Of a stretch of 64,000 bases of DNA, positions 2,710-35,809 are shown piece after piece; positions within the stretch are counted from its first letter, which is position 1, and every line of letters begins with the position of its first letter. Both the position numbers and the translations under genes were made by a program. The notes beneath the pieces are model-generated. The model searched no databases and was not told the origin of the DNA. It saw only the letters and a program-made list of their open reading frames with translations. Source of the DNA: Candidatus Melainabacteria bacterium 17Bon1m (GTDB taxonomy: Bacteria; Cyanobacteriota; Vampirovibrionia; Obscuribacterales; Obscuribacteraceae); contig JAVLKG010000006.1 in NCBI GenBank assembly GCA_032128875.1, forward strand, positions 192,001 through 256,000, read 5' to 3'.

Positions 2710-3309
2710 CTAGTCAAACACACACTTCAATGTGAGCGCATGTTTAAGTCGCTCCAAATATTCTTTACGCGAAATCTGTAACGCATTGAATGTGCTCAAG
2801 TGATCCGTCACGTACTGGGAATCGAGTAGCACAAAACCTCGCTCCTTCATGCGTTCTACTAGATAAACGAGACTGACTTTCGAAGCGTCAGTGACGCGGT
2901 GAAACATCGACTCGCCCATAAACGCACCGCCAATACTTACGCCATATAAACCGCCTGCAATTTCGCCCTCAAAATATGCTTCGACCGAATGCGCAAAACC
3001 GTGCTCATGCAGTTCGCAATAGACGCGCAAAATGTCTTCAGTAATCCACGTGCTATCGCGTTCAGCACACAATCGCATGATGCCTTCAAAGTCATGATTC
3101 ACTCTCATTTCGAATTTACCGCTGCGAACCGTTCGCATCAAACGCTTGGACGCGTGAAAATCGTCCAGCGGAATAATGCAACGCGGATCAGGCGAGTACC
3201 AACGAATAATGCCATCATCGTGACCCATCGGAAAAATTCCAGCGGTGTACGCGCGCAGCACGAGTTCGGCAGTAAACTCGGGCTCAATCTTGTCACGTAA
3301 CCATTTCAT
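2710..3309 (-). CDS. aat: Leucyl/phenylalanyl-tRNA--protein transferase
   Basis: AYTAGIFPM, WYSPDPR, GFAHSVE, GGLYGV, GESMF, DASKV motifs. Confidence 0.95.
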   Translation of the reverse strand: MKWLRDKIEPEFTAELVLRAYTAGIFPMGHDDGIIRWYSPDPRCIIPLDDFHASKRLMRTVRSGKFEMRVNHDFEGIMRLCAERDSTWITEDILRVYCELHEHGFAHSVEAYFEGEIAGGLYGVSIGGAFMGESMFHRVTDASKVSLVYLVERMKERGFVLLDSQYVTDHLSTFNALQISRKEYLERLKHALTLKCVFD

Positions 3310-3336
3310 CGATTGCTTTGCTTATCAGACCGGAAT

Positions 3337-3909
3337 TTACTTCTTCAATTCATTCTTCGCTGATGCTGGGGTCAAGCTTCGAATGTACGCAATTAAGTCT
3401 GTCATGTCATTGTCGTCGACTCGAGCCTTACTAAAGGATGGCATACCTGCTTTTAGAACGCCCGTCCGGATTAACTGTTCTATTTGCCCATCTTCTTTAT
3501 AGCGAGCGAGAAAGCCGGGACCTTTGAGCGGGCGGTATGGGTGTAGCGAATTTTCGCCATTGGGGTGGCATCCCGAACAGGTCAGCTTATTGAATAAAAA
3601 TTTGCCTCTGGCGATCTTGTCGGGCGATGGTTTCGCTGACTTTGGTTTTCCCTCGCCCGCTTTACCTGCAGATGTTTTGTCTGCACTCGCTTTTCCGGCA
3701 CCCGTTTTGTTATCAGTGGATTTGCCGGCGGGTTTTGCCTGAACTTCTTTAGCCGCGGAAGTTTTAGCAATTTGGGTGGTGACGGGTTTTGATGCAAGCA
3801 CTGGGCTAAAAACTCCCAGAACAAGCGCCAAAATTATCAGCGTGTTTCTTCTCGTTGCCGAGCCCGGGTGCCAAACTGGGATTCCAAAAAAATGTTTTTG
3901 CCGCTTCAT
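3337..3909 (-). CDS. Exported class I cytochrome c (c6-like) with Lys/Ala-rich linker
   Basis: Hydrophobic signal segment, low-complexity linker, CSGCH haem motif, GMPSF axial Met, AYIRSL end. Confidence 0.85.
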   Translation of the reverse strand: MKRQKHFFGIPVWHPGSATRRNTLIILALVLGVFSPVLASKPVTTQIAKTSAAKEVQAKPAGKSTDNKTGAGKASADKTSAGKAGEGKPKSAKPSPDKIARGKFLFNKLTCSGCHPNGENSLHPYRPLKGPGFLARYKEDGQIEQLIRTGVLKAGMPSFSKARVDDNDMTDLIAYIRSLTPASAKNELKK

Positions 3910-4117
3910 GTTCTAAATTCTAGCGCTCACCAGGGCGTTTCATCTTTATAGACCAAATTTGCCCAACTTCATTGTTACCGTGCCAGTGTAGGTTCACCAC
4001 CACCGAGCCTTCTTACTAAGCCAACCTCTCCTCCTTTTTTCCCATTCTTTTCAGCAACTACAGATTTCGAGCAATTTGCTTTTGGGATCTTAGGGCTCGA
4101 TTTTCAGGTAAAAGCCT

Positions 4118-5029
4118 GTGAGTGAATCATCCACTATTAGACAGCAAGATGCGAAAACTGGTTCCGAGACCTTGCGCTCATCCACGGAACATCATGCATC
4201 AGCACGCTTGTTCGATGAAGCAGATGCGTTGCGTGCTTCTGCAATTACGGATGTGAAACAAGCACAATGCGCACGCCAGCCCTCTGCGGGTGAAGTACCT
4301 GTGATGAAGCCAGGGAAGGCGACAAGCGGATGTGACTATCAAGATCTGAAGAGAGTGGCGCAGGACTCTGGAGTGTTGAATGTTCCCAATCTCTGGGCTA
4401 CCGGTTCTGAATCTACTGCGCGGATTGTCTTGCACGCGAAAAAAGGAACTGAAGACGGCATCACTCAAGGTACTGGTGTAGCTATCGGGAAAGTCGGTGA
4501 CCAGTGTGTGATGGCAACAGCGCGCCACGTTGTCGAAAGTACTTCAAAGCGCCAAATAGTTGCCAGCGCGGTAGAAATGAACGACGGTAATTTCTACAAA
4601 TACGATGTGAAAATCATGGACCCGCTCAGCGATCGCGCGGTGATTGCTGTGAAGACCGGCGCTAAGACTGATGAACTTTGTCATCCTGTTGTAGCTGGCG
4701 AATCAGTTATGAACTCTGGAAAAGCCGCGATAGTCAGCTATCCGGGCAATTCGAATTCGAAGCATTTGTCGATGGCGCGCGTTGAAGGCGTTAAGGACAG
4801 TGCGCCATACACGGCTGATGCGAAGGGAAGTACGAAGGAAATTTATACCGAAGCGCACACGAAGAAGGGAAGTTCTGGCGCGCCGATGTTCGACACCACC
4901 GGCAAACTCCGCGCATTAGTTACGCGCGGACCAATTGATGGTCGCCCGGATGACGATGTGACCGTGCTTGCGCCCGTCACAACTCAAGACCAGCGGCGCT
5001 GGATGGAAGAATTCCGTAAAGCTAGATAG
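4118..5029 (+). CDS. Trypsin-like (S1) serine protease
   Basis: GTGV, TARHVV (His), DRAVI (Asp), GSSGAP (Ser). Confidence 0.8.
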   Translation: MSESSTIRQQDAKTGSETLRSSTEHHASARLFDEADALRASAITDVKQAQCARQPSAGEVPVMKPGKATSGCDYQDLKRVAQDSGVLNVPNLWATGSESTARIVLHAKKGTEDGITQGTGVAIGKVGDQCVMATARHVVESTSKRQIVASAVEMNDGNFYKYDVKIMDPLSDRAVIAVKTGAKTDELCHPVVAGESVMNSGKAAIVSYPGNSNSKHLSMARVEGVKDSAPYTADAKGSTKEIYTEAHTKKGSSGAPMFDTTGKLRALVTRGPIDGRPDDDVTVLAPVTTQDQRRWMEEFRKAR

Positions 5030-5037
5030 ATTTTCTT

Positions 5038-5700
5038 CTATTCTTCGAAGTTCAGATTCATTGGCGTGGCTGAATATCCGGTGCCATGTGCGTACTTGCC
5101 GGTGAGAGGAACGTCCTTACCGACTTCTTCAAGACTCACATCGTCAACCCACACCTGTCCTTTTCCAATTAACATCATTCCGAACGCTATGCCTGTGGAC
5201 TTTGCCGGCAGCTGAACAACCAAATCATACTTCTTCCAATCCGTAATTCCATTGATGGGTCTATCGTCCATGTTATCGAAAGCCCCAGTTTTCGTGTCAG
5301 ATTCCCACTCACCGTCGATGCGTATCCATAGTTGACAGGTTCCGGATTCAATTTTTGATTTGACCCATGCGGACAGCTTTACTCGCTTTCCCACGTAGTT
5401 CTTAGCGTCAATGTATTGCATCAAATTGCCGAATGGTCTTGGCTTTTTGACGATAGATCTCAGAGTCGCGCAAGACTTACCGCTATGCTTTTCGCTTGTA
5501 TCAATGAATGTCTCGTAGTCGCTCTCATGTTCAGCGCAATACATCCAGCCCTTTGGCGTTTTAGTTTTTGAAGCGACGTCAGCTGCAGCGTCTTTCGCTG
5601 CTTCGTTGGCGCGAGCCGGTGTAACAAAAGCCAGCATATTTGAAATTGCTAGGAGTGTTCCTAGGAAAGTCATTGCATTGATTCTCGATGGCTGTTTCAT
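5038..5700 (-). CDS. Exported beta-sandwich (carbohydrate-binding-like) domain protein
   Basis: Signal peptide ending PARA; GKRVKLSAWVK, FDNMDDRPINGITDWKKY, GKGQVWVDDV pattern; function unknown. Confidence 0.55.
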   Translation of the reverse strand: MKQPSRINAMTFLGTLLAISNMLAFVTPARANEAAKDAAADVASKTKTPKGWMYCAEHESDYETFIDTSEKHSGKSCATLRSIVKKPRPFGNLMQYIDAKNYVGKRVKLSAWVKSKIESGTCQLWIRIDGEWESDTKTGAFDNMDDRPINGITDWKKYDLVVQLPAKSTGIAFGMMLIGKGQVWVDDVSLEEVGKDVPLTGKYAHGTGYSATPMNLNFEE

Positions 5701-5794
5701 GCTTTGCCTCGTATCAAACGTTTCGAGTGACTGTGAGTAAGTTACTATGGAACTATGGTCTTATCATTCCCGCGTTCGAGAGAGAAACTAAACC

Positions 5795-6151
5795 TTGCGC
5801 TGGAAATACCTAAAGATTGCTTTGATTGGCGCCCTCCTTGGGTTTCTTGGGCAATTTTTGTTTGATTTTTTCACGCCAAATATTGATGTCGATTATCACG
5901 GGCACAGGCAAAAAGATTCGGCGTTCCAAATCTTCTGTTCTATGCACGGTAATTCAAAGTTGTGTGCCGAAGATCAAAACCTTGTGATGCAATGCATACC
6001 GTTGTTTTTTCAAGCGTTAACATTGATATGGTTATCGGAAAGTTCGGAAGGCGCCTTGCGTACTGCTGCTATTTCCGCCCTATTGCTGGTCGCGATTGTT
6101 CAATCTATTGAACACCTGAAGCGCAATAAGCTGATGGCGAACAATTCCTAA
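5795..6151 (+). CDS. Hypothetical membrane protein
   Basis: Fills the gap between flanking genes; several hydrophobic segments; TTG start. Confidence 0.45.
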   Translation: MRWKYLKIALIGALLGFLGQFLFDFFTPNIDVDYHGHRQKDSAFQIFCSMHGNSKLCAEDQNLVMQCIPLFFQALTLIWLSESSEGALRTAAISALLLVAIVQSIEHLKRNKLMANNS

Positions 6152-21920: not shown

Positions 21921-23003
21921 CTACATTCTGTAAATCAGTTGCTCTTTACTAATAACTGCATTTGATTCAGCTGCGGCGATTTTTTCTTTCACCAGGTCAT
22001 GATGTGGGGAAAGCTTGCAGACAGGGTCGGCTTGAGCTGCATCACCCGCGAGGAGAAACGCCTGACAGCGGCAGCCGCCTAGGTCTTTCTCTCGAAACTC
22101 GCATGTACGGCAAGGCTCGACCATCCAATCGAAACCGCGAAAAGCGTTGAACGCCGGCGACTCCTTCCAAATCCATTCCAGTGTGTTTTCTTTGGTAGAT
22201 GGAAAAGATAATGTTTTGATCGCGCTCGCTGCAAGGCATGGATAAGCAGTTCCATTTACTGAAATAACCATATGTTGGCTTGCCCAGCCGCCCATGCAGG
22301 GTTTTGGTGAACTTTCAATATAGTCGCCGATTATCCAACTGAGGTGCATTTTTCCCTGCAATTGATTTTTCTTTGTTTCATAAACAACTAGTGCGTCGCT
22401 CATTTGTTGTTGCGTCGGCAAAAGGTGGTCCATATTAGCGGCAGCAAAACCGTAATACTGTGTATTCGCTAGCTCAAGACGTTTTACGCCGAGGCTATGC
22501 GCCAGATCTATTATTTCGGCAACCTCATGAAGGTTGTGGCGATGCAGTACCACATTCAGTGCTAAAGGTAATTTCGAATTCGCGACCAATTTTAAAGCAG
22601 CTAATTTTTGCTGTTGCGCATCCCGGCCTGCAATCAATTGCGCGGTTTGCGAACTGGCTGATTGTATGCTGATTTGTATACTTTCTAGCCCGCAACTAAT
22701 TAACTCTGATACAACCATTTCAGTTAGCCCGATACCGCTTGTAATCAAATTGCTGTAGATGTCGTGTTTTTTCAAACGCTCGATGATTCGTGGTAAACCT
22801 GCATAGGCAAGAGGTTCTCCACCGGTAAGATTAGCCTGCACCACTGAGAGCTTTGCTGCCTGATCGATGATTGAAAGCCATTCTTCAACAAGCAGTTCAT
22901 TATCGGCGCGCACCAGTTCCAGAGGATTGGAGCAGTACAGGCACCGCAAAGGACAACGATGAGTCAGCTCCATCGTCAGGGTGTATGGATTAGAAACCGT
23001 CAT
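21921..23003 (-). CDS. pqqE: PqqA peptide cyclase, radical SAM/SPASM
   Basis: ELTHRCPLRCLYCSNP, TGGEPL, ELANTQYYG, PKPCMGGW, CRTC..GGCRCQA..DPVC. Confidence 0.97.
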   Translation of the reverse strand: MTVSNPYTLTMELTHRCPLRCLYCSNPLELVRADNELLVEEWLSIIDQAAKLSVVQANLTGGEPLAYAGLPRIIERLKKHDIYSNLITSGIGLTEMVVSELISCGLESIQISIQSASSQTAQLIAGRDAQQQKLAALKLVANSKLPLALNVVLHRHNLHEVAEIIDLAHSLGVKRLELANTQYYGFAAANMDHLLPTQQQMSDALVVYETKKNQLQGKMHLSWIIGDYIESSPKPCMGGWASQHMVISVNGTAYPCLAASAIKTLSFPSTKENTLEWIWKESPAFNAFRGFDWMVEPCRTCEFREKDLGGCRCQAFLLAGDAAQADPVCKLSPHHDLVKEKIAAAESNAVISKEQLIYRM

Positions 23004-23290
23004 TGTTTTAGCTCGATCCAGCCGCGAGACAGCGCGTCCATGAGAAATTCCGCAAGGTCTCTGTGCAATGTGTCATCTTCGTAGCGTACCGCAAGCTCAG
23101 AATAAATCATCTCTATGGTGCGATTGCCGTCGACTAGCTCAAGAACTTCCGACGCCGAATGATTGAGTTTGACGATGCATTCAGGCATGAGCAGTAGTTT
23201 GCATTGCCTTTCTTCGTCGTCTTTTAAACGGACGCCATGCGCCATCTGGAGGACTGATTCTTTGACAATGTTTTCTAGTCCGTCTGCCAT
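23000..23290 (-). CDS. pqqD: PQQ peptide chaperone
   Basis: LLMPE, KLNHSASEVLELVDG; lies between pqqC and pqqE. Confidence 0.93.
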   Translation of the reverse strand: MADGLENIVKESVLQMAHGVRLKDDEERQCKLLLMPECIVKLNHSASEVLELVDGNRTIEMIYSELAVRYEDDTLHRDLAEFLMDALSRGWIELKQ

Positions 23291-23295
23291 TCAAA

Positions 23296-24021
23296 TCACC
23301 GCACAACCTTGGAGGCGCATTCGTTTCCTTGAATCGCGTCCAGCATCGACCACAATACATCGCATTTGAATTCTACGGCTTTTAGCGCCTGAAGCTGTTT
23401 TTCCGGCGTGTTTGCTGCTGCTAAAACAATGGACAGTCCGTGTTCGGAATCTCGCGGTGCTTGACTCAGGCGATTGCGAAAGTATGTTAGACCGTCCTTG
23501 TCGATCCAATGATAATGCCTTTCTATGACTTCGATTCGATAGCTAACGAGTGTGGGTGCAAAGACTTCAGTGAGTGATGATGCGACAGCTAGCCACCATT
23601 CATTGTTGCGGCAATAATTTACGTACGCGTCAACCGCGAATATCACGCCCGGCAAAAAATGTTTTCCGTCGAGAAGCTCGTTGCGACTGATTCCGGCTGC
23701 TTCTGCAAACTTCAACCAAGCGTGAATGCCTCCATCATCTTCGGCGCGTCCGTCGTGGTCGACAATGCGTTCGCGCCATTTGATGCGGTCGGCTCGTTGA
23801 GGGAGTTTCGACAGAACAATGCCGTCTTTGATTGGCAAGCATTTTTGATAATAAAAACGATTTGCGATCCATCGCTGCATCTCGTCTTTGCTCAACAAAC
23901 CCTCGTGCATGCGGGCGTGAAACGGATGTTTGTCGTGATACTTCTCTTCCCCGATTTTTTTCAGGCGCGCGACAAACTGCTCTTCGCTTAAAAGTTGACG
24001 GCTCGACTGTAAATCAATCAC
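23296..24021 (-). CDS. pqqC: Pyrroloquinoline-quinone synthase
   Basis: YHDKHPFH, NRFYYQ, IKD, RIVDHDG, FAVDAY, SSLTE, FKCDVLWSMLDA; start moved to GTG 24021 overlapping the pqqB stop. Confidence 0.96.
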   Translation of the reverse strand: MIDLQSSRQLLSEEQFVARLKKIGEEKYHDKHPFHARMHEGLLSKDEMQRWIANRFYYQKCLPIKDGIVLSKLPQRADRIKWRERIVDHDGRAEDDGGIHAWLKFAEAAGISRNELLDGKHFLPGVIFAVDAYVNYCRNNEWWLAVASSLTEVFAPTLVSYRIEVIERHYHWIDKDGLTYFRNRLSQAPRDSEHGLSIVLAAANTPEKQLQALKAVEFKCDVLWSMLDAIQGNECASKVVR

Positions 24022-25090
24022 GAATCTTGTTCCTGCAAGAGTTAACCGATTTGCTCGTTGCAAGCGAGAACGGCGCGCCGCTGCAAACAGACATTCCGTC
24101 GACTGCAATGTGGACTCCGGCGGTTTCGACCGCCCGTCTTTCCGTGGAATTATCGCGCAAAATCGGGTTGCTGTTGTTGATATGAGTGAGGAATTTTGCT
24201 CTTGCTTTCACCTTTTCAAGTTTTGCCAAAATGCCGCCTGCGCCGCTCAGTGGTAAGTGCCCCATCGTCTCGGCGTCAGGGGCGTTGCCGTCCAATGCCT
24301 GCAGCTCATTTGATGTATAAAAAGTACCGTCGACGAGTACTGTGTCGCAGCCGTCGAGTAGCCAGAGGAGTGCTTCGTCCCAAGCGCCGATTTGAGGGGC
24401 GTAGGCAATGGCGTCGGATGTGTCGTGTTTTGGCTCAGGCTCGACTTGGTTTCCCTCTGCCTCGACGTGCTTTCCGTTTAACTTTTCTTGGCTGCTTTCG
24501 AACTTCAGACCGATGACGGCGTCAGCGGTTTGGTTCGTGTTGGCGGATTGTTCCTCGGTTTGGGCGCCAATTTTCGAGGCGCCCACGTATCGCGGTTGTC
24601 TATTGCTGAGGCCCGCCGCTGTTACCGTCATAGAGTCGCCTAGCTTGAATGGAACGCCTGGCACAATCGTGAAAAATTCGAGATGGGCGTAGTTTTTCAG
24701 GACTGCCTTAACGGGGAAGGCTTTTTCCATCAAGCCCAGAACCGACGCTGTGGCATAGACCCGCAGACGTGAGCCTTCGCGCAGATTAATTAGTCCCATC
24801 GTATGGTCAAGCTCACCATCAGTGAGGATCACAGATTTAATAGGACTATTTCGAACAGGTCCATTCGGCGGCGGGTGGAGCTCGCAATGTCGTGCCAGCT
24901 GGTGTCTGAGGTCGACGCTCGGATTGACTATTGCCCAGGACGTTTCCCCGTTTTCCTCATACTCGACCGCCAAGGAGTCGGTCGTGCGCGCGCTCTCTGG
25001 GTTGTTTCTTGCAAAATTGCAATTTTCGCAGCCGCAATTCCATTGCGGACAGCCGCCACCGGCGCCCGTGCCCAGAACAATCAGGCGCAC
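24014..25090 (-). CDS. pqqB: PQQ biosynthesis protein B (metallo-beta-lactamase fold)
   Basis: GAGGGCPQWNCGCENC, LTDGELDHTMGL, LREG, DGTF, MGH, HINNSNP. Confidence 0.96.
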   Translation of the reverse strand: MRLIVLGTGAGGGCPQWNCGCENCNFARNNPESARTTDSLAVEYEENGETSWAIVNPSVDLRHQLARHCELHPPPNGPVRNSPIKSVILTDGELDHTMGLINLREGSRLRVYATASVLGLMEKAFPVKAVLKNYAHLEFFTIVPGVPFKLGDSMTVTAAGLSNRQPRYVGASKIGAQTEEQSANTNQTADAVIGLKFESSQEKLNGKHVEAEGNQVEPEPKHDTSDAIAYAPQIGAWDEALLWLLDGCDTVLVDGTFYTSNELQALDGNAPDAETMGHLPLSGAGGILAKLEKVKARAKFLTHINNSNPILRDNSTERRAVETAGVHIAVDGMSVCSGAPFSLATSKSVNSCRNKIRD

Positions 25091-25164: not shown

Positions 25165-25320
25165 AAAGCCTCCAATTAATTTCTGCCCTGTTAAATTCGA
25201 ATGGGCGGATTCACATATGGTTTCAATCAGGATCATGCACGCGTTGCGCCAAACTAAACTATCATTTGTAGATTAAAGGCCAATCTATTTAGATTAAACG
25301 GTGATTGACAAGGGGGCGCC

Positions 25321-26556
25321 ATGAAGGCGAGTGTAGCCAAGAAATCCGAAGAGGCGAAAAGCGATAAGCATTTCGACCTGAAAGCTGTGCAGGCTGCGAT
25401 TCAAGATGAAGACCTAGACGGATGGCTTTTCTATTTCTTTCATGACAATGATCCGTTGGCGCTCAGTATTCTGCAACTGGAACAAGGCCACTTCACGCGC
25501 CGCTGGTTTTATTTTGTGCCGAAATCCGGCGAGCCTATCAAAATCGTTCATCGTATTGAGATGGACGCGCTGGATTCGCTGCCTGGAGAGAAACGCGTTT
25601 ACCTTGGTTGGAAACAGCTAGAGAGTGTGCTCAAGGAGACTTTGTCTGGTGTTAAAGAAGTGGCGATGCAATACTCGCCGATGAATCACATTCCTTATGT
25701 GTCAAGAGTCGACAGCGGCATTGTGGAGCTTGTTCGCTCCGCTGGCACGGAAGTTGCAACATCCGCCAACCTCGTCCAGAAGTTCGAAGCTGTGTGGAGT
25801 GACGACCAATTGAAGAGTCACGTCACTGCTGCTGAAAATCTGCGAAAGTTCATTTTCCTTGCATTTCAGTTCATCAAAGAACGCATTAATGGAGGCAAGC
25901 CGGTCAACGAGTACGAAGTTCAACAATATATTTGCAAGCTCTACGAAGAACACGGCATGGTGACCTCTTCACCGCCTATAGTGGCAGTGAATGGACACAG
26001 CGGATTGCCGCACTATCAACCAAACAAAGATTCTTTCAGCGAGATAAAGAAAGGCGACTTCGTTTTGCTCGATATCTGGGCAAAGCAGGGCACGCCGCAC
26101 AATGCAATATACGCCGACATTACTTGGACCGGTTATGTAGGTGATGCAGTTCCACAGAAATACACCGATATTTTTGAAGTCGTTCGCGGCGCGCGCGATG
26201 CTGCTCTTGCTTATGTTTCAGAGCGAATTGCCGGAAAGCATATTGTGCACGGATACCAGGTTGATGATGTCTCGCGTAACTACATAACTGAGCGCGGTTA
26301 TGGAGATAAGTTCGTCCATCGCACGGGGCATTCGATTTGTACCGAAGTGCATGCAAATGGCGCGAACATCGACAATTTGGAAACCAAAGACGAGAGAGAA
26401 ATTATTGCGCACACGGGTTTTTCCATTGAGCCCGGCGTGTACCTGGAAGAATTTGGTGTCCGCAGCGAAATCGATGCTTACGTGGGTGATGATGAGGTTT
26501 TGGTTTTTGGGCAACCTATACAGACAGAGATAATTCCGATACTTGCGCTCAAGTAA
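25321..26556 (+). CDS. M24 family (Xaa-Pro) aminopeptidase
   Basis: PHY, LLDIW, YADIT, HRTGHSI, SIEPGVY, VRSEID metal-ligand motifs. Confidence 0.92.
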   Translation: MKASVAKKSEEAKSDKHFDLKAVQAAIQDEDLDGWLFYFFHDNDPLALSILQLEQGHFTRRWFYFVPKSGEPIKIVHRIEMDALDSLPGEKRVYLGWKQLESVLKETLSGVKEVAMQYSPMNHIPYVSRVDSGIVELVRSAGTEVATSANLVQKFEAVWSDDQLKSHVTAAENLRKFIFLAFQFIKERINGGKPVNEYEVQQYICKLYEEHGMVTSSPPIVAVNGHSGLPHYQPNKDSFSEIKKGDFVLLDIWAKQGTPHNAIYADITWTGYVGDAVPQKYTDIFEVVRGARDAALAYVSERIAGKHIVHGYQVDDVSRNYITERGYGDKFVHRTGHSICTEVHANGANIDNLETKDEREIIAHTGFSIEPGVYLEEFGVRSEIDAYVGDDEVLVFGQPIQTEIIPILALK

Positions 26557-26565
26557 GGAGCACCC

Positions 26566-27786
26566 GTGCCAGTCGAGAACTGTCTAATGAATGTTGGCGA
26601 GTGGGTTACTGACCTGGCGGCCATTTCGTGTCTTGGTGCCGGACTGGCTGCGTTGGTGCTGACCTTGTTGCCCGGTAAGCGACTGACGGGAAAGGCTGAA
26701 TCCGCAGATCCTTCATCTTTCATCGATCCGGGGGCCGGCGAAACAGCGCGCTATCGCCTCGCCTTCAAAGACCTTATCACTGTGAAGAATTCGGGTTTGG
26801 ACGTCACGCAGGTTTCTGGCACTGTACCGGAGCCTGGTGTTGGGCTTGAAGGAACGCGCGCAATGTCTGCAAGCGAACTGGCAATCACGATGTTCGACCA
26901 GGGTATTTTAGGTGTTGGTCTCGGCGAGAAGAGTCTGGAAGCGACAAAGTCTTTCTCGAAAACCAAATTCGAAAAGACGAAAGTCGATTCGAAAACCAAG
27001 ATTGATTCAAAAACAAAAATAGAAAAGAAGGTCGACACCAAGACAAAAATTGAGCCGCGAGCCAAGGAAGAGAAGCCGAAGCCCGAATCGAAGAAGGACG
27101 CGAAGAAAGAAGCGAAACCAGATCCAAAAGATCAGAAGAACCAGAAAGACCAGAAGAAAGATCCGAAGAAAGACACAAAGAAGGGCGACGAGAAGGATTT
27201 GCAGCTTCATATGGCGGTGCGCAAAATCACTTATGGTTCAAAGAAAACTGACCCATATGTTTCAAAGCCGGTCATTGATGAGAATACGGGAGAGCAAACT
27301 CCCGATCCATTGAAGCCAACATACTTTAGTGAAGATATTTTGGACGCGATGGATAGGCAGCCGGCAAGTTTTCTGAATCAGTCGAAGGAGCCTGACCCAA
27401 GTCCACTCCCTGCAGAAAAACCAAACGCAGCTCCAGGTTTCCCAACGGCAGCCGGTCCAGCGCAACGAGTTCCGCTGCCGCCGCAGCCTCCGGCTCAAGG
27501 TTTCCCGCAACCACCGCAGCCTCCGGCTCAAGGTTTCCCGATGCCGCCGCAACCGCCGACTCCGGGTTTCCCTCAACCACCGCAACCTCCGGCTCAAGGT
27601 TTCCCTGTGTCTCCCCTACCTCCAACTCCGCCTCAACCGCAGAATCCAAAGGAAGGGCAACAGTCTCAGCCAGAAGAAATCGATCCAAGCAAAGACCCGA
27701 AGAAGGTTGGACGCTCGACACTGATTGAGCCCAAACGCAATCTTCAACAAGACAGAGAGCCGCCGCCGCCGGAGTACTTCAAGTGA
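26566..27786 (+). CDS. Single-pass membrane protein with Lys-rich and Pro/Gln-rich repeats
   Basis: AAGGAG RBS; N-terminal TM; (S)KTKI/V-D/E repeats; PPQPPAQGFP repeats. Confidence 0.75.
   Translation: MPVENCLMNVGEWVTDLAAISCLGAGLAALVLTLLPGKRLTGKAESADPSSFIDPGAGETARYRLAFKDLITVKNSGLDVTQVSGTVPEPGVGLEGTRAMSASELAITMFDQGILGVGLGEKSLEATKSFSKTKFEKTKVDSKTKIDSKTKIEKKVDTKTKIEPRAKEEKPKPESKKDAKKEAKPDPKDQKNQKDQKKDPKKDTKKGDEKDLQLHMAVRKITYGSKKTDPYVSKPVIDENTGEQTPDPLKPTYFSEDILDAMDRQPASFLNQSKEPDPSPLPAEKPNAAPGFPTAAGPAQRVPLPPQPPAQGFPQPPQPPAQGFPMPPQPPTPGFPQPPQPPAQGFPVSPLPPTPPQPQNPKEGQQSQPEEIDPSKDPKKVGRSTLIEPKRNLQQDREPPPPEYFK
27478..27609 (+). repeat. In-frame 33-bp tandem repeat, 4 imperfect copies
   Basis: Unit about CCGCAGCCTCCGGCTCAAGGTTTCCCGCAACCA encoding PPQPPAQGFPQ. 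Confidence 0.85.
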
Positions 27787-29900
27787 CCGAGACAAGAACT
27801 CCAGAAGCGAAAGCCGCGCCTGAGAAAAAGGCGAAGCAAGACAGCCAGGGTGTGAAGCCCTGGTCTTTGCGCCTGCTCATTATTTACGTCGGCATTGGTT
27901 TCTACGTTCTTTTTGCGTGGTCGCAAATAGGGCCCAGCATACTTTCGGCGATTGCGTTCAACCTGGCTGTTCTCGCCATTCTCGCCGTCATCTCTAGTTG
28001 TACTCGAACGCTAGTGTTGCGCCGGATGTTGTCGCTCTTTCTTTGGGGCGCATTTATGACTGGTGTTGCCGTCATGGTGTCGCATGTTGCTGTGAACGCC
28101 TTCGCTTTCTCTGGTCGTGGCGGCACTGAAATTGCCATGGCAGCAATCGAGGAAGTAATAAAACTAATACCGCTTGTGGTGCTTATGATCGTTGGCCGGA
28201 AATTCAGCACATTTACCATGGGCATGACCGATTTTATTCTTGCTGGTGCCGCGCTTGGTGCTGGTTTTTCCTGTCTGGAGTACGCTGCCGCTCACAAAAA
28301 CGCAGCTGCCTATGGGCAACTTGCCTGGCTTCCGACCGCTGAGATTGTGAACGGGCGCATGATTTCAGGTCACCTCATTTGGTCATCGCTGGCGGCAGCA
28401 GGGATCGGATTTGGCTTTTTCTTCAAGACCAGATGGAAGGTTGCAGCAATTGGTGCAGCGATTGGATTAGCCGTCACCATCATCGATCATGCTGCCTACA
28501 ACTATTCAATTGTCAGCAACGATTGGATGTCCGGTATTCTCAATGCGATTGCGCTCAACGGCTATCTTGCCTTTGGTTTGTGGATCGCGTCGATGGTGAT
28601 TGCGTTGGTGGTGGATGCTCGCGTTTTGATAAAGGCGGTTCCACAGTTTAGCGAATTCAAAGTGCCGAAGGGACTTGAAGGGCTCGATGGATTGATGGCG
28701 ATGTGGGACTTCGTTATCGATCGCAGGAGATTGGCGTATTCGCTGCATCACTATGAAAACGCGCCTGAGGCTTTGAAAAAAGACGCTGCTGTTACCTCGT
28801 CGCTGCTTGCGCAAACACTGATCAACTTTCATATTCCCGAGCGCAGATTGCGCACTCTTGATGCGATGACGCGAGAAGATCTGACGCTTGTCGCAGGAAT
28901 CAACGATATAGGTAGAGAAGGCGATCCGGATAGCCTCGATGATATTGATCTACCGAAGCATATTAAACTGAATGCGCCTCTCAGTCAGGGCGGGATGGGC
29001 ATCATTTACAGTGGTGAGCACATTCACACTGGGCAAAAACTTGCCATCAAGCTTTTGCATCCAACGTTTGCGCGGCAACAGCAGGCTGTTGAGCGTTTCA
29101 AACATGAGGCAAAAGCAGTTGGCGCCCTCCAGCATCCCAACCTGGTTACCATCACCGACTTTGGCATCACCGAGCGGAGAAAAATTCCCTATTTGGTGAT
29201 GGAATTGATTCAAGGAGAAAATTTGGAGCAGGTGATCAAGGATGGCAAAGGCATGCATCCTCAGCGTTTCTTCACCATCTTCGATCAAGTCATCGACGCG
29301 CTGTCTCACGCGCACAAGCGTATGGTCATTCACCGCGATATGAAGCCGAGCAACATCCTTTTGACTCAAACCGAAGACGGACGCGACATGATCAAGATTG
29401 TTGACTTCGGTATTGCGAAAATTATGACCGGCGAGGGTGAAGAAGGCGCCAATGCGCAAGAGTTGACGCGTACCGGCGATCTCATCGGTAGCCCACTTTA
29501 TATGAGTCCTGAGCAAGGTCTGGGGACGAAACTGGATGCCAGATCGGATATTTATTCCGTTGGTTGCGTTATGTATGAATGCATTGTTGGTGAGCCACCG
29601 TTGCTAGGAAACACCGCTGTGCAAACGATTATGATGCATATCAATGAGTCGCCGAAGACGTTGCGTGAAGCAAAACCGGAATTGAATATTCCAGCTGGAA
29701 TAGATCACTTCGTTATGAAGTGTTTGGCGAAGAATCCGAATCACCGTTTTCAAACTATGGACGAGATGAGAGAGGCTCTGCACAACGTGAGGGCTAATCC
29801 GTTTGGACCACAAGGAGGAGGAAGCCCCCAGAGCCCTCCCAATCCGCATAATCCTCAAAACCCGCAAAATCCACCGCATCCACCAAATGTGATGGCATAG
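27783..29900 (+). CDS. PrsW-family intramembrane protease fused to a Ser/Thr kinase
   Basis: Multi-TM N-half with EEVIK, GAGFSCLE, SGH, HAAYN; C-half with QGGMG, AIK, HRDMKPSN, DFG, YMSPE. Confidence 0.88.
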   Translation: MTETRTPEAKAAPEKKAKQDSQGVKPWSLRLLIIYVGIGFYVLFAWSQIGPSILSAIAFNLAVLAILAVISSCTRTLVLRRMLSLFLWGAFMTGVAVMVSHVAVNAFAFSGRGGTEIAMAAIEEVIKLIPLVVLMIVGRKFSTFTMGMTDFILAGAALGAGFSCLEYAAAHKNAAAYGQLAWLPTAEIVNGRMISGHLIWSSLAAAGIGFGFFFKTRWKVAAIGAAIGLAVTIIDHAAYNYSIVSNDWMSGILNAIALNGYLAFGLWIASMVIALVVDARVLIKAVPQFSEFKVPKGLEGLDGLMAMWDFVIDRRRLAYSLHHYENAPEALKKDAAVTSSLLAQTLINFHIPERRLRTLDAMTREDLTLVAGINDIGREGDPDSLDDIDLPKHIKLNAPLSQGGMGIIYSGEHIHTGQKLAIKLLHPTFARQQQAVERFKHEAKAVGALQHPNLVTITDFGITERRKIPYLVMELIQGENLEQVIKDGKGMHPQRFFTIFDQVIDALSHAHKRMVIHRDMKPSNILLTQTEDGRDMIKIVDFGIAKIMTGEGEEGANAQELTRTGDLIGSPLYMSPEQGLGTKLDARSDIYSVGCVMYECIVGEPPLLGNTAVQTIMMHINESPKTLREAKPELNIPAGIDHFVMKCLAKNPNHRFQTMDEMREALHNVRANPFGPQGGGSPQSPPNPHNPQNPQNPPHPPNVMA

Positions 29901-29954
29901 CAAGTACAATGATTTAGGCGTCCGTGTAAAGCACCAAGCGAGAAAAGGACAGTT

Positions 29955-30623
29955 ATGACAGCTCGAAATCACGCCGGCAAATACATGCGCAGCAAGTTCG
30001 GGAATGTCTCCCGAAATGAAAGGGGTCTGGCAACCTGGGTCAAGATTCTGATTGGGGTGATGATTGTCGGAACGATTTCGATTGTTGCGATTATCGGTAG
30101 TGTTGCTTGGTTGGCTGGTTCTGCATACAAGGACATGACTGACCCTAAGAAGTCCAAAGCTACCTTAGAATCAATCGCCAAGTTCGAAGATCCATTGCCT
30201 AAGGGCTGGCAGTTTGGCATGGCTCTTCCACTCGGCCCGATAAGCGTCGCCATGATTTCTAATGACAAAGCGAAGCTAAATATCACCTTGTTGAAGTTGC
30301 CTAGTGGTGGCAAAGATATGACCAACGAAGTAGTAGTTGGAGAATACGCTGCAAAAGGGGTTCCTGATATGTCGGGCAGCGGCACTAAGTCGTCGGGCCC
30401 AATTACTGTTGAAAACAAGGGCAAGATGAATGTCGGCGGCGAAGAGCTCGCATATGTGACTGGCGTCGGCAGCGACACCAGCAAGAAATTTGCGCAATTC
30501 ATTGGAAGTGTCATTCCGAAGAACAAAGATTCGGTGATTATTGTGCAAGGTCAATCACTCGACTCAGGGGAATATCCAATGGAAGAGACAAAAGCTTTGC
30601 TGGGTGCCATCAAGGGTTTTTAG
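29955..30623 (+). CDS. Membrane-anchored hypothetical protein
   Basis: Basic N-terminus, long hydrophobic helix, soluble domain; AAGGA RBS. Confidence 0.65.
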   Translation: MTARNHAGKYMRSKFGNVSRNERGLATWVKILIGVMIVGTISIVAIIGSVAWLAGSAYKDMTDPKKSKATLESIAKFEDPLPKGWQFGMALPLGPISVAMISNDKAKLNITLLKLPSGGKDMTNEVVVGEYAAKGVPDMSGSGTKSSGPITVENKGKMNVGGEELAYVTGVGSDTSKKFAQFIGSVIPKNKDSVIIVQGQSLDSGEYPMEETKALLGAIKGF

Positions 30624-30651
30624 CTTGTCCTGCGCCAGAGGGCATTTGAAA

Positions 30652-31101
30652 ATGGATAAATATACCTCCATGCTGGCGCTTTATGCTCGTTTTCTATTGA
30701 GCATGTCGATGTTTTGGGCTGCTTTTTTCAACTTCGCTGGTTGGAATGATCAAATGACGATGTTGTTTCCGGTGGCGCAGCAATTGTCAGCGCCGCTTTT
30801 GGCTGCAACTACAGCCGCGGAGATAGTGCTCGGCATCTCCGTTTTGATTGGTTATGCAACGAAGTACATGGCTTGGTTGTCATTGCTTTATACGATGGTT
30901 ATGGCGTGCGTGACGCACCAGTTCTGGGTTGTGGAGCCGGGTCTGCAAGCGAGGGAAGCGATGAACTTCCTGCATGCGTTCGGTTCTGCCGGCGGTTTTC
31001 TCTTGCTAATCGCCCTTGGACCCGGAACCTTCAGTATCGACGAGTTCTTGAAAGAGCCCGTGTCAACAAGTTCTGCACCAGCGACGGACACGAGGTCATA
31101 A
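30652..31101 (+). CDS. DoxX family membrane protein
   Basis: ARFLL..F, AEIVLG..VLIG, HQFW, GGFLLLIALGPGTFSID; start moved to ATG 30652. Confidence 0.85.
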   Translation: MDKYTSMLALYARFLLSMSMFWAAFFNFAGWNDQMTMLFPVAQQLSAPLLAATTAAEIVLGISVLIGYATKYMAWLSLLYTMVMACVTHQFWVVEPGLQAREAMNFLHAFGSAGGFLLLIALGPGTFSIDEFLKEPVSTSSAPATDTRS

Positions 31102-31122
31102 AGATAGCTCTCTGCAGAGCTG

Positions 31123-32772
31123 CTATTTCTTGATTGATTGTACTTTTGGCTCAAACCCATCAAACACGCTCAGGAGCGTCTTATCATCGTTTTCTGCGTT
31201 GGCTATTGTAATGAATGCAATGCGCGCTTCCAATTCATTCGGAAAATCTTTGATGATTGAAGCAAACCCAGTTTTGACTTTATCCCAATCAAAATGGTCT
31301 TTACTGTCCGCATCGCTTCCATAGCAGTCGTCAAAAAATTCGAATGCCATTCGTGCGTAATACTTGTCTCCTTCTGAGCCACCCATTGAGTCAGCACGTT
31401 TCTTTGCGTACGCAATTCGATCAATTTTTTCTCCAAGTGTTTCGTAATCCTGAAATTTGAATGCCCACGAGTCAATACAGAAATAATGCGGCCAACGCTT
31501 GTTGGCAGCATCGATGACCTTGAATAAATCAGCCTTTTCGTGTTTTGCAGCAGCAAGCCGCAGCGCTGGAACGAATGCTTTGGGGAACCGATTCGGGAGG
31601 TCTGGATCAACATCCATAACGTCGTTTGCTTTTTGAATTAATGCTTTGTAGTTGGTATCTTCTTCGTCATCATCAATCTCCCATGCACGATAAATGTGCG
31701 TTTGGGCTAGACAGGTACGTGCTAAATCGGATTTTGGATATTTTTTCAACCAGCGTTCGAGACGCGCCACCCAAATTTTGTAATTCTTTTCATTGTTGTT
31801 GCTTTCGCCTTCAATCGCTGTAGAGAAATAATCAAGTTGTTCAAAACCAGTCCAGTAGAGTTGATGGCTCTTAAGGTATTCCTTACTCAATCGATCAAGT
31901 TCTGCAAAATCCTCTTCGGCAAACAAATGTCTCGCCAGTGCAGTCTCCGGTTTCTTTCGATTGCTACCGTGCCGAAGGCCGAAGACCAGTTCTTTCCATC
32001 CTTTTTCACAATGCGCTTCGGTGGTTACGTCCTTCAACTCAAGCCATGCTTCTAGCGCTTCCTTGTATTTTCTTTGAACCGCTTTCATTCGGGCAAGCAT
32101 TGCATATATGTACCAGTTTTCTGCTTTTGAAAACTTGTTGTCCGCGATACTACTCACGGCTCGCTCCATAGTAGAATTCGCCCTGGCAGAGTCTCCCATG
32201 TCAGCAAAAATAACGGCTAAATATGCACGCTTTTCATTTGTTGCACTGCTGTTTGGCTGCAGTCTATTTTCTGCAATTTCAATGGATCTAAGTTGGTCTT
32301 GCAGTCCCGTATCTTTTGTTTTGCCTGCGAGCCACCGATCGTGTTTTTCCCAGGCGCGGTCATAGTAAACCTGTGAAAGTTGGCTCGCAACGGCTTCAAA
32401 TTTCTTCCAAGCATCACCGCTCATCGCAAGTTCGATTGCTTTTTGAATTTGGTAGTCCCCTGCTTCTGTTAAATGTTCCTTGTAGAGAAATGAAGCATAT
32501 TTCCTGTGCAGCTCCATCAATGTCTCTGGCTCAGTTCCGTTTTTGGTCGCCTGTTCAAAGATCTCTTCAATCTGAGCTCTACCTTGTTTCCAATCTACTT
32601 TTGCAACCTTAATTGCCCTGTCAAGATCTGCGTTCAAAACGTATCCTACGCAGACTTTAGAAAAGATTCCCCAAGTTACTCCACCAATCGCTAGAACAAC
32701 AAGAACCACAATCCCTATGGATATCTTTGCTCCCGTGCTCATAGTCCTGCGTTCTTCGATGTCTTTAGTCAT
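31123..32772 (-). CDS. Membrane-anchored TPR-like / DUF4034-like protein
   Basis: N-terminal TM, helical repeats, DFAELDRL, RLERWLKKYPKS, AW motif resembling DUF4034. Confidence 0.6.
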   Translation of the reverse strand: MTKDIEERRTMSTGAKISIGIVVLVVLAIGGVTWGIFSKVCVGYVLNADLDRAIKVAKVDWKQGRAQIEEIFEQATKNGTEPETLMELHRKYASFLYKEHLTEAGDYQIQKAIELAMSGDAWKKFEAVASQLSQVYYDRAWEKHDRWLAGKTKDTGLQDQLRSIEIAENRLQPNSSATNEKRAYLAVIFADMGDSARANSTMERAVSSIADNKFSKAENWYIYAMLARMKAVQRKYKEALEAWLELKDVTTEAHCEKGWKELVFGLRHGSNRKKPETALARHLFAEEDFAELDRLSKEYLKSHQLYWTGFEQLDYFSTAIEGESNNNEKNYKIWVARLERWLKKYPKSDLARTCLAQTHIYRAWEIDDDEEDTNYKALIQKANDVMDVDPDLPNRFPKAFVPALRLAAAKHEKADLFKVIDAANKRWPHYFCIDSWAFKFQDYETLGEKIDRIAYAKKRADSMGGSEGDKYYARMAFEFFDDCYGSDADSKDHFDWDKVKTGFASIIKDFPNELEARIAFITIANAENDDKTLLSVFDGFEPKVQSIKK

Positions 32773-32781
32773 AAGAGTGCC

Positions 32782-34167
32782 CTAGTCGACGACTTTCTTC
32801 GCAACGTATTCTCCGGCGCGGACGGCACCGTCGATATTGCCGTTCCACAAAGGTGATGTTTCGGAAGTCGCCCAGTGAATGCGACCGAATGGTTCTCTAA
32901 TGACGTGTCCGTAGGAAGTCATTACCCCTGGTGCCATGTGCGCGACATGGCATCCACGTGTCCAGGGATCTGTCGACCAGTTGTGTTCGAAATAGTGGCT
33001 TGGTCTTGCTCCTTTTAGACCGAATCGCTTGGCCATATAAGTAATCACGTGTTTATATCTTTCTTCTTCCGGCATTTCAGCCATTTCTGTAGCTTGAGTA
33101 GAGAATGCAAAAGACATTAATGCGCCGACTTTTTCATCGGGCGGTGATGTATCCAGTGTCATCTGCAGATATTCATCGGGTGCTGTAACCTCGCCACTTA
33201 AGCCCTTTTGCCGCCAGAACGATTCAGGATAAACAGTGACAAATTTCATGCAATGACCAGCGGGCATATTCTTAAGAAGTTCCATTCTTTCGGTTGGAAG
33301 TGACGGTCGATATTCAATGTCGCATGCGAGAGCGGGAGGAATAGCAACGACGACTTGCTTTGCCTTAACCGTAGCTTTGTCGGATGTGATGGCCACTCCG
33401 TTTTCGTCTTGCGAAATTCGACTGACCGGCGAGGACAAAATCAGCCAATCACCCTTTGTTTTTCTTTGCCCTTCGTCTATTTTGGCGCGCATTTTTTCGG
33501 CTACTTTAATCATGCCGCCTTTGACCATGTCTTGCTCTGCGCCGCCCTCTACTTTCATTTGCATCTCGATGTCGTTGCCGGACGCTGCGATCTGAAAGAG
33601 AACATACAAGAGAGAAATTTCGGAAAGTTCTACAGTAAACAAGCCGATAAACAATGTTCTCAGCATTGCGAGAGCTGCTTGACCCAATTGATGGACAGGG
33701 TCATTGAGAAACTCGGCGAGGGAAATTGAGTCCCATTCTTTTGCTTTTGGACAGGTCCAAGGAGCGTCGTTCGGAACTTCGAGGGACATTATAGAAAGCT
33801 TCTGCAAGGTGTCCCAAACGCCATCTAGTGACTCGGAATCAACCTCAGGTACGTCCTCTCCGTAGCGATAATATTCGTTTTTGTAGACAAAGTAGCTGTC
33901 GCCGTGAATGGGCGTCGGAGTAATTTCCAGTTCTAATTCTTCGAGCAAAGCATAGATTCGATCTTGCGATGGTCCTAAAAATGTTCCGCCCATGTCAATT
34001 GGCGTTCCATCGCTGAGGTACTTTGTCCAGACTTTACCGCCTATTCGCTCTCGCGCTTCCAAAACAACAACAGCGTGTCCAGCTTGAGATAGTCGCAGTG
34101 CGGCGGTAAGTCCAGCGAATCCTGCGCCGACAATACAAAAATCACGCTCAATGATGTTGTCCGACAC
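32782..34167 (-). CDS. Flavin-containing monoamine oxidase family protein
   Basis: IVGAGFAGL, LEARERIGG, DMGG, WSTDPWTRG, GRIHWA, GNIDGAVRAGE; start moved to GTG 34167. Confidence 0.92.
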   Translation of the reverse strand: MSDNIIERDFCIVGAGFAGLTAALRLSQAGHAVVVLEARERIGGKVWTKYLSDGTPIDMGGTFLGPSQDRIYALLEELELEITPTPIHGDSYFVYKNEYYRYGEDVPEVDSESLDGVWDTLQKLSIMSLEVPNDAPWTCPKAKEWDSISLAEFLNDPVHQLGQAALAMLRTLFIGLFTVELSEISLLYVLFQIAASGNDIEMQMKVEGGAEQDMVKGGMIKVAEKMRAKIDEGQRKTKGDWLILSSPVSRISQDENGVAITSDKATVKAKQVVVAIPPALACDIEYRPSLPTERMELLKNMPAGHCMKFVTVYPESFWRQKGLSGEVTAPDEYLQMTLDTSPPDEKVGALMSFAFSTQATEMAEMPEEERYKHVITYMAKRFGLKGARPSHYFEHNWSTDPWTRGCHVAHMAPGVMTSYGHVIREPFGRIHWATSETSPLWNGNIDGAVRAGEYVAKKVVD

Positions 34168-34304
34168 GACAATAAGACCCCGAGCCGGCGAGCCGCTGAG
34201 CCGCCGACGCTCCCAGATGCCCAATTAAATCAGCTTGAAAACTCACATCCGGCTTCCTTTCCACTTCACTACCGGATATCAGAAACCGGATTGTTGGATG
34301 CAAA

Positions 34305-34981: not shown

Positions 34982-35809
34982 TTATGTAGCTGATTCCTGT
35001 GGCAGATGGCTTTGGATGTAATCACGCAGGGAAGAGAATTCGCGCTCGATTGAAGTCGCAGTCTCTTCAGCTTCAATCCAATCGTGTCTGCATGCAGTTT
35101 GCTCAAGATAGAGGCAAAGGCGAGCCAAATTTTTGGCCCCGATTGATGCGCAAGACGCTTTGATTTCGTGTGCTAGAGCCGCAACCAACTTGGAGTTTTT
35201 TTCCTCCATATGATTTTTGACCTTGCTCAACATGTCTTGAGTGTCATTGAGGAACATCTCCATCATGTCAGTCAATTGCTCGGGTTCATAGAACTCTTCC
35301 AGCTCAGCCATATCGAGAGGCTCGCTCTTGACGAGGGTTAGTGCAGCTTTCGGTCTTAGCACTTTGCGTCTCTGCTTTTGAGTCTCGCAAACCACTTCAG
35401 TTCTAAGCCAGTGATTGACTTTCGCCTTCAGCAAGTCAATGTCAATGGGCTTTGACAGGTAGTCGTCCATTCCGGCTGCAATGCAGCGCTCTCTATCGCC
35501 CGACATCGCAAGCGCGGTGACAGCAATGATAGGACTGTATGTATTTGTACGAGCTTCAATTTCCCGAATAGCGACCGTAGCCTCGAATCCATCCATCACA
35601 GGCATATGACAATCCATTAGGATTAGGTCGAACTTGTGATTTGACACGGCTTCAACGGCTTCGCGACCGTTGCTCGTAATCTTTACTTTGAGACCAAGGC
35701 GTTGCAGCAGAACGGTTGCTACCTTTTGATTGACGAAATTGTCTTCGACAAGAAGCACATGGGGCGCATCGCCTTGTTGCGTGATTGAGTCGCCAGCTGC
35801 TTGTTTCAT
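34982..35809 (-). CDS. Receiver-HPt phosphorelay protein
   Basis: LLVEDN, ILMDCHMP, TALA, SKP receiver; AHEIKASC HPt His motif. Confidence 0.9.
   Translation of the reverse strand: MKQAAGDSITQQGDAPHVLLVEDNFVNQKVATVLLQRLGLKVKITSNGREAVEAVSNHKFDLILMDCHMPVMDGFEATVAIREIEARTNTYSPIIAVTALAMSGDRERCIAAGMDDYLSKPIDIDLLKAKVNHWLRTEVVCETQKQRRKVLRPKAALTLVKSEPLDMAELEEFYEPEQLTDMMEMFLNDTQDMLSKVKNHMEEKNSKLVAALAHEIKASCASIGAKNLARLCLYLEQTACRHDWIEAEETATSIEREFSSLRDYIQSHLPQESAT

Follow-up and report, generated by a model that had tools for sequence, protein, structure and literature searches.

A conserved fusion of a PrsW-family membrane domain to a Hanks-type kinase, with a single-pass partner, as a candidate receptor kinase of Obscuribacterales

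The locus described here lies in a stretch of 64,000 nucleotides (the window) from Candidatus Melainabacteria bacterium 17Bon1m (GCA_032128875.1, contig JAVLKG010000006.1, positions 192,001 to 256,000 of the forward strand), whose GTDB lineage is Bacteria; Cyanobacteriota; Vampirovibrionia; Obscuribacterales; Obscuribacteraceae. An open reading frame (ORF) at 27783-29900 on the forward strand, with a GTG start and no internal stop, encodes a protein of 705 amino acids in which a PrsW-family membrane domain is fused to a Hanks-type Ser/Thr kinase. Directly upstream on the same strand is the gene for a single-pass membrane protein, here called the partner. As far as searched, the two genes probably make up a signalling module confined to Obscuribacterales, an order of non-photosynthetic relatives of the cyanobacteria.

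The N-terminal half of the fusion holds the PrsW-family domain of eight membrane helices (27861-28637, residues ~27-285). Within it the PrsW motifs occur as E123-E124-x-x-K127 (EEVIK, 28149-28163), F162-x-x-x-E166 (FSCLE, 28266-28280), H197 (28371-28373) and H236-x-x-x-N240 (HAAYN, 28488-28502), with D235 nearly invariant too. A cytoplasmic juxtamembrane helical bundle follows (28680-28877, residues 300-365), in which W308, D313, R315 and R316 are conserved, and then a flexible linker (28878-28958, residues ~366-392) where the predicted local distance difference test score (pLDDT) falls below 50. The kinase domain, with its catalytic residues complete, spans 28959-29798 (residues ~393-672), and a Pro/Asn-rich low-complexity tail (residues ~675-705) and the stop codon occupy 29799-29900. 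Contig X11, from an independent DNA run of another study, covers 25303-31500 and shows no insertion or deletion within the fusion ORF. An earlier note on this DNA had described a continuous 705-residue ORF, a multi-spanning half with all four PrsW motifs, a complete Hanks kinase and a PxN repeat tail, and all of these were recovered. What it called a helical linker divides in two: residues 300-365 are a bundle, confidently modelled by AlphaFold2, that is also present in free-standing relatives of about 350 residues, and only residues ~366-392 form a linker, which is disordered.

Pfam model PF00069 (Pkinase) covers residues 399-660 of the kinase half (profile positions 6-256 of 263) with E 1.4e-48, scoring 166 bits against a cut-off of 31.7. 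The closest solved chain is PknB of Mycobacterium tuberculosis (E 2.3e-53), and the activation-loop residues T562 and T564 fall opposite the TQT stretch of that loop in PknB. The residues G403-G406, K423, E442, H517-R518-D519-K521-N524, D541-F542-G543 and S575-P576-E577 are invariant in all 31 fused proteins aligned. NCBIfam models matched the kinase part of the fusion alone, all under their full-length cut-offs. Membership among the Stk1/PknB PASTA kinases was considered and rejected; model NF033483 gives 297 bits against a cut-off of 450, its match is limited to profile positions 11-271 of 563, the kinase part, and the PASTA repeats are unmatched.

PrsW (YpdC) of Bacillus subtilis is the site-1 protease of the anti-sigma factor RsiW and defines the comparison made for the membrane half, with Pfam model PF13367 as the family profile. 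Judged by sequence, the N-half of the fusion is a PrsW family member through transitive homology. A phmmer search of the N-half against 1.84 billion representatives returned 228 proteins at E <= 0.001. The PF13367 gathering score is passed by 39 of the 54 best relatives scanned, with P0024 reaching 54.6 bits, and by 19 of 21 further relatives; phmmer E values of the N-half to proteins above this cut-off run from 3e-55 to 1e-22. Residues E123, E124, K127, F162, E166, H197, H236 and N240 are conserved columns in an alignment of 69 relatives. The same four motifs (EExxK, FxxxE, H, HxxxN/D) are given for B. subtilis PrsW in the available part of PMC12943098, where the changes E75A/E76A and H175A abolish function. 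Four relatives (P0024, P0025, P0026 and P0034) exceed the cut-offs of both PF13367 and PF00069, so public annotation can already see the PrsW-kinase architecture. A search of the complete 7.55-Mb genome with PF13367 (E <= 1) gave as its sole match a canonical PrsW of 283 residues on contig 15 (L001 1411-2262, reverse strand; G000:C15), with E 1.4e-26; BLASTP between the N-half and this protein gave E 2.2. Since the genome has a separate free-standing PrsW, the fused copy exists alongside it, not in its place.

Hydropathy and an AlphaFold2 model built from the 69-relative alignment (pLDDT 86.7, predicted template modelling score 0.85) agree on the eight membrane helices. The N-terminus and the odd loops together have 13 Lys and Arg residues and the even loops only 2, an asymmetry that places both ends, and hence the kinase, in the cytoplasm. 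By model and topology, the PrsW motif residues are located toward the outer half of the membrane. An exhaustive structural aligner run against 48,161 chains put gamma-secretase APH-1B (8oqz_C) first, with root-mean-square deviation 4.9 over 201 residues (model residues 50-283, 11% identity) and Z 10.2; as this is below the level of about 13 at which the aligner deems helical bundles convincing, a CPBP/APH-1-type fold is counted as consistent with the match, not as proven. The second match was 6w6l chain 4 (Z 8.5). The available part of Zhang 2012 (PMC3482391) treats PrsW as a distant relative of CPBP and APH-1. Among solved chains, a profile search matched only kinases, through the kinase columns of the alignment, and no PrsW-like chain.

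The N-half matches 59 of 107 Obscuribacterales genomes, representing 19 of 38 genera, and no genome in a sample of 400 others from the phylum. There are 63 such matches in the order, and 49 of them fall within open frames of 669-756 amino acids. Sixteen of these ORFs, from 15 loci, were examined, and all align with the query over both halves, kinase included. The kinase is carried by 12 of the 150 representatives listed, all but one of which rank within the 27 closest to the N-half. The fusion is nearly always present in a single copy per genome. Throughout the order its membrane domain and bundle retain 27-44% identity, and many positions outside the catalytic residues are near-invariant. The fusion of a PrsW domain to a Hanks kinase is therefore real and conserved; its taxonomic spread, which the earlier note had left to be checked, is lineage-wide within Obscuribacterales.

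Locus L040 comes from a genome of the same family that is without the fusion. It has a soluble kinase of 300 amino acids (3041-3943, forward strand; E 3.7e-65 to the window kinase) sitting 1 kb upstream of a free-standing PrsW-like gene (4998-6074, forward strand) whose motifs are partly degenerate, and it has no partner gene. This arrangement is possibly a split or precursor state of the fusion.

The partner gene (P0003, 406 amino acids) occupies 26566-27786 of the forward strand. It starts with GTG, with AAGGAG 6 nucleotides upstream, and an alternative ATG is found at 26587. An alignment of 23 rows separates a conserved N-terminal module (26566-26940, residues 1-125) from a genus-specific tail (26941-27783), Lys/Thr-rich with Pro repeats, that is probably disordered. 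The protein spans the membrane once and is predicted to have its N-terminus on the outer side and its C-terminus on the inner side. The module consists, in order, of a short acidic stub outside, an Ala/Gly-rich membrane helix (~17-36), basic residues, and two cytoplasmic helices. The first of these helices follows the pattern F-P-x-D ... K-Y-x-x-A-Y-x-x-L or F-x-D-G ... K-Y-D-V-A-L, and Y63, A66 and L70 are nearly invariant in the alignment. Partner frames measure 315-440 amino acids in the window's genus versus 51-289 elsewhere. No Pfam family was matched by the partner, save that one of 23 members had a marginal match to DUF5539 (E 0.0097), and no look-alike was found in Atlas. Contig X11 has one extra in-frame copy (22 codons) of the 66 nucleotides at 27499-27564, in the Pro-rich repeats of the tail, so the repeat number varies between strains.

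The partner stop overlaps the fusion start here (GTGA). In 14 of 16 pairs the gene ends overlap or are at most 11 nucleotides apart; L025 and the second copy in L031 have gaps of 50 and 66 nucleotides by mechanical ORF calls. From stops that overlap or abut starts, we infer that partner and fusion are probably translated together. A hidden Markov model (HMM) of the partner family, trained with L023 and L030 held outside its training set, finds a single frame at each locus, and that frame always immediately precedes the fusion gene. The partner is present once in its own genome and has matches in 55 of the 107 genomes of the order. Among the 63 N-half matches, 53 have the partner upstream on the same strand. 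Three of the ten unpaired matches are cut by contig ends and seven are free-standing PrsW relatives of 338-414 amino acids, around none of which the partner HMM finds a match at E <= 1.

In one genome (G468) partner and fusion are duplicated in tandem as a unit; at L031 (7702-13172, forward strand) two such pairs lie on one contig, both with degenerate protease motifs in the fusion gene. The partner gene at L026 (9029-9482, reverse strand; likewise G404:C1:1215552-1215966) is broken into two reading frames, suggesting either a frameshift or an error in the sequencing; the adjacent fusion gene also has degenerate motifs.

The two halves of the fusion differ in what has been preserved. While the kinase residues are invariant, the complete set of PrsW residues (E, E, K, F, E, H, D, H, N) is found in 16 of 32 fused proteins, with conservative changes in two more, and 14 of the 32 are without one or more of the catalytic residues. 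L033, from the other family of the order, has lost every motif residue and keeps both partner and kinase. The window's clade has kept every motif residue in each of its 8 rows, which reach down to 57% identity. A second clade has kept them too. A quick maximum-likelihood tree of 32 fused and 10 free-standing rows, none dropped and with support from the Shimodaira-Hasegawa-like approximate likelihood ratio test only, places the losses at no fewer than four points: a clade of nine rows (support 96), P0022, which is the sister of the window's clade, P0048 and L033. The partner is found beside motif-less fusion genes too, and its N-terminal stub is conserved in the catalytically dead lineages.

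The invariance of the kinase residues points to phosphorylation as the conserved output of the module. The proteolytic residues have been lost repeatedly in relatives, which argues that what the PrsW domain does family-wide is hold the partner and sense or transmit a signal, and that cleavage is not its conserved role. With catalytic residues lost in 14 of 32 proteins that keep partner and kinase, cleavage cannot be the mechanism shared by the family. All proteolytic residues are kept in the window's lineage, so that the window copy may well still be a competent protease, a state that by its sequence we consider slightly the likelier one. Proteolysis is thus optional across the family and probably retained in the window's copy.

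Fusion residues 20-680 (31-row alignment) and partner residues 1-125 (23-row alignment) were folded together. The interaction prediction score from aligned errors (ipSAE) for the pair is 0.64 (runs 0.60, 0.64 and 0.69), compared with 0.00 for the best of three controls. The mark used with this score is reached by 116 of 157 solved complexes and by 2 of 215 mismatched pairs, a calibration that holds only roughly here because our own alignments were used. Contacts agree between runs to at least 67%, and the partner pLDDT is at least 52. In the model, partner residues 7-33 contact fusion residues 30-49 and 80-104, in helices 1 and 3, and also 112-123, 161-170 and 239-244, among them E123, E166 and N240. 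Partner residues 52-70 contact 332-348, and 101-116 contact 287-292, 309, 313 and 354-362. The near-invariant Y63 of the partner is among the best-defined contacts. There is no solved PrsW-like complex that the model could have reproduced. The partner is accordingly predicted to bind the fusion at its membrane domain and its juxtamembrane bundle.

The conserved unit, read from sequence, would be a partner, a PrsW-fold domain, a helical bundle and an active kinase. We consider it probable, with some reserve, that this unit is a receptor Hanks kinase whose sensor is a PrsW-derived domain bound to the partner, and that it represents an undescribed kind of bacterial receptor kinase. The eight-helix domain and the cytoplasmic bundle would take the place of the conventional extracellular sensor of a receptor-type Hanks kinase. 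In the modelled complex, the partner membrane helix would pack on helices 1 and 3 of the PrsW domain, its outside stub would reach the catalytic residues, and its cytoplasmic helices would grip the bundle leading into the kinase. The PrsW domain may thus hold the partner and sense or transmit a membrane or envelope signal, which would flow from membrane domain to bundle to kinase.

Several observations weigh against the receptor interpretation. The intact motifs in the window fit a working protease as well as they fit a receptor. The family membership of the N-half is indirect, by way of intermediates, since PrsW models of Pfam and NCBIfam do not match residues 1-390 even at E 10, and the N-half went unmatched in the whole-genome PF13367 search at E <= 1. 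The earlier note had raised the prospect that the N-half might not match PrsW; this proved true of the direct profiles and false of the motifs and of the relatives that pass PF13367. Besides the structural Z below the level for helical bundles, Foldseek of the N-half model against the PDB gave no match at E <= 0.001, with APH-1B at rank 36. The tree that places the losses is a quick one, L033 is on a very long branch, and the counts overstate the number of independent events because the 32 fused rows are related to one another, 8 being close to the window. For the complex, apart from the rough calibration, the model lists no confident contact between partner and kinase domain, which is neutral on whether one exists, and the effect of the partner on the kinase is therefore purely inferential. 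The locus yielded no substrate, phosphatase or FHA protein. As to transcription, three runs labelled RNA-Seq, from one sample, contain the interval 25000-31500 in contigs of 25-46 kb identical to the window; at that length and identity they look like genomic DNA in those libraries and are not evidence of transcription or co-transcription.

A less probable explanation, though one with substance, is that the PrsW domain is an active protease here and, on a signal, cleaves the partner or another membrane protein, thereby toggling the kinase. All seven motif residues have been kept by the window's clade (8 of 8 rows) and by the second clade; as these positions drift freely elsewhere, their preservation suggests selection for catalysis in this lineage. 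The outside stub of the partner is also predicted to touch residues 123, 165-166 and 239-240. Set against this are the 14 of 32 fused relatives that lack catalytic residues yet retain partner and kinase, and the retention of the stub in catalytically dead lineages, as expected of a binding element. B. subtilis PrsW cuts the extracytoplasmic domain of RsiW, whereas the stub has only about 10-16 residues, and no sigma/anti-sigma pair was found among the neighbouring ORFs scanned. On the favourable side again, fusions of PrsW to PilZ, cNMP-binding and FHA domains have been proposed as 'signaling peptidases' in the available part of PMC3482391. The suggestion of the earlier note that proteolytic sensing is joined to phosphorylation may hold for this copy, with its motifs intact, but does not describe the conserved core, given the 14 of 32 proteins that have lost catalytic residues.

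If the window's PrsW domain does cleave, its most likely substrate, or pseudo-substrate, would be the partner stub. A more doubtful proposal builds on this: the stub would plug the PrsW active site while the partner's cytoplasmic helices clamp the bundle, and in lineages with intact motifs a membrane or envelope signal would cause the partner to be cleaved or released, freeing the bundle and switching the kinase. Sister lineages would repeatedly have turned this device into a pseudoprotease receptor that does not cleave. Were that true, intramembrane proteolysis would be relayed directly to Ser/Thr phosphorylation within one complex.

It is improbable that the PrsW-like domain is a plain anchor that merely tethers an ordinary kinase, with an unrelated gene upstream. 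Many bacterial Hanks kinases have membrane segments without a known role, and the decay of catalytic residues in many relatives would suit an anchor. The eight-helix domain and bundle are nevertheless kept at the identity given above, with many non-catalytic positions near-invariant, the pairing with the partner is near 1:1, and the complex model passes against its controls.

More improbable still is a self-processing release of the kinase, an idea taken from PrsW-toxin fusions. C-terminal Endonuclea_NS_2 (P0107), EndoU (P0145) and NTP_transf_2 (P0132) domains do occur in more distant relatives of the N-half, architectures of a kind that the available part of Zhang 2012 (PMC3482391) reads as autoprocessed toxins, and the disordered linker 366-392 precedes the kinase. 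The kinase, however, is not polymorphic and is inherited with the membrane domain, nearly always as one copy per genome; instead of an immunity gene downstream, the conserved neighbour is an upstream gene for a membrane-bound protein; the motifs are placed toward the membrane's outer half, away from the cytoplasmic linker; and the fusion is kept in lineages without the catalytic residues. A PrsW-type polymorphic toxin in the sense of Zhang 2012 was likewise considered and rejected: the C-terminal kinase is conserved order-wide, the downstream genes are not conserved, and the conserved neighbour lies upstream. That the fusion is two genes joined by an assembly or gene-calling error, a concern of the earlier note, can be set aside, with uninterrupted frames of 669-756 amino acids in 49 matches across genomes of the order, 15 of 16 close database relatives (58-100% identity) being 683-720 amino acids long with the kinase (P0006 is a 443-residue fragment), and contig X11 crossing the ORF without indels.

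As a receptor kinase of the kind favoured here, the module resembles several known systems in part. It shares with B. subtilis PrsW a multi-helix membrane domain and the four motifs, and the two are homologous via intermediates that pass PF13367. It differs in that a cytoplasmic bundle and a kinase are added, in that the N-half itself falls below the family model, in the lack of a sigma/anti-sigma pair among the neighbours scanned, and in that the catalytic residues are dispensable in many fused relatives. Like PknB of M. tuberculosis and StkP of Streptococcus pneumoniae, the fusion ties a cytoplasmic kinase to a membrane-embedded sensing part. Unlike them, it has the membrane part N-terminal and the kinase C-terminal, the reverse order, and it is without PASTA or other extracellular domains, the sensor being an eight-helix protease-family domain with a predicted bound partner.

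PrsW domains fused to PilZ, cNMP-binding, FHA and Zn-ribbon domains, for example Leptospira LIC_20173, are described in the available parts of PMC3482391 and PMC12943098. Read there as 'signaling peptidases', these fusions begin, like the window's protein, with a PrsW domain and continue into a cytoplasmic signalling domain; their attached domains receive signals, as binders of ligands or phosphopeptides, whereas here the attached enzyme emits one. As far as these two accounts are available, they name neither a kinase fusion nor a dedicated single-pass partner. In group B Streptococcus, the non-catalytic CPBP-family regulators CflP and Abx1 bind and tune the sensor kinase CovS, according to the available part of PMC13692083. 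As protease-fold membrane proteins of the wider CPBP/PrsW/APH-1 group that act on a kinase by binding and not by cleavage, they set a precedent for the receptor interpretation and parallel the catalytically dead fused relatives; they act in trans and on a histidine kinase, unlike the covalent fusion to a Hanks kinase in the window, where the catalytic residues are kept. APH-1, the best structural match of the modelled domain, is a non-catalytic scaffold related to PrsW and CPBP in the available text of PMC3482391. As APH-1 is a subunit of a eukaryotic complex without a kinase, the likeness is one of fold only, at a Z where helical bundles can match by arrangement alone.

No paper on a PrsW-Hanks kinase fusion with a dedicated partner was found in the literature searched; subscription journals and the additional file of PMC3482391, an architecture list, were outside the search and could name one. 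The earlier note knew of no characterised PrsW-kinase fusion, and we found none either. Its larger suggestion, of a candidate undescribed system, stands as regards a describing paper and is weakened as regards the databases, to which the architecture is visible in the four relatives that pass both Pfam models.

Bacterial Hanks kinases are numerous and PrsW-family proteins widespread. To our knowledge, sensed signals are established for very few of the former, chiefly the PASTA kinases, and only one PrsW substrate system is understood. The module offers a natural experiment in which the same domain, partner and kinase occur in versions with and without the catalytic residues, so making the conversion of a protease to a receptor open to test. 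The same question applies to APH-1 and to the CPBP regulators that tune CovS, and eukaryotic pseudoproteases raise it as well. The module also gives a first functional handle on the partner, a conserved and unannotated family of small membrane proteins, and suggests that this poorly known and uncultured lineage, a neighbour of the cyanobacteria, has a signalling system of its own.

Around the module are an M24 metallopeptidase gene (25321-26556), whose stop is 9 nucleotides before the partner start, a gene for a membrane-anchored protein that belongs to no known family (29955-30623), and a gene for a DoxX/SURF4-like protein (30541-31101), all on the forward strand. The order M24, partner, fusion, anchored protein, DoxX is kept in close relatives at 79-92% identity, and none of the three flanking genes was found by BLASTP at 1e-4 beside any of 15 more distant fusion loci. 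Of the operon proposed in the earlier note, the single-pass partner upstream is therefore conserved and the other members are limited to close relatives, the M24 gene to the genus-level group of the window. No sigma or anti-sigma factor was found among the 12 neighbouring ORFs scanned, and nothing at the locus bears out its description as envelope-stress-like. Anti-sigma proteolysis of the PrsW/RsiW type was rejected as a candidate; those 12 neighbours include no cognate pair of extracytoplasmic function (ECF) sigma and anti-sigma factors, and the partner matches no Pfam family.

Further upstream, four genes on the reverse strand at 21921-25090 encode a radical SAM protein with a SPASM domain (21921-23003), PqqD (23000-23290), a TENA/PqqC family protein (23296-24108) and a protein of metallo-beta-lactamase fold (24014-25090). 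The set resembles a PQQ-type cofactor or peptide-maturation cluster and is kept upstream of the module in close relatives. Downstream, also on the reverse strand, an ORF of 549 amino acids (31123-32772) matches no Pfam family. Of the related loci, L002 alone, which is near-identical, has this ORF, and it may be an insertion specific to the strain. The amine-oxidase gene beside it (32782-34224) is kept in 9 of 11 other Obscuribacterales loci. At 34982-35809, again on the reverse strand, a response-regulator receiver domain is joined to an Hpt domain.

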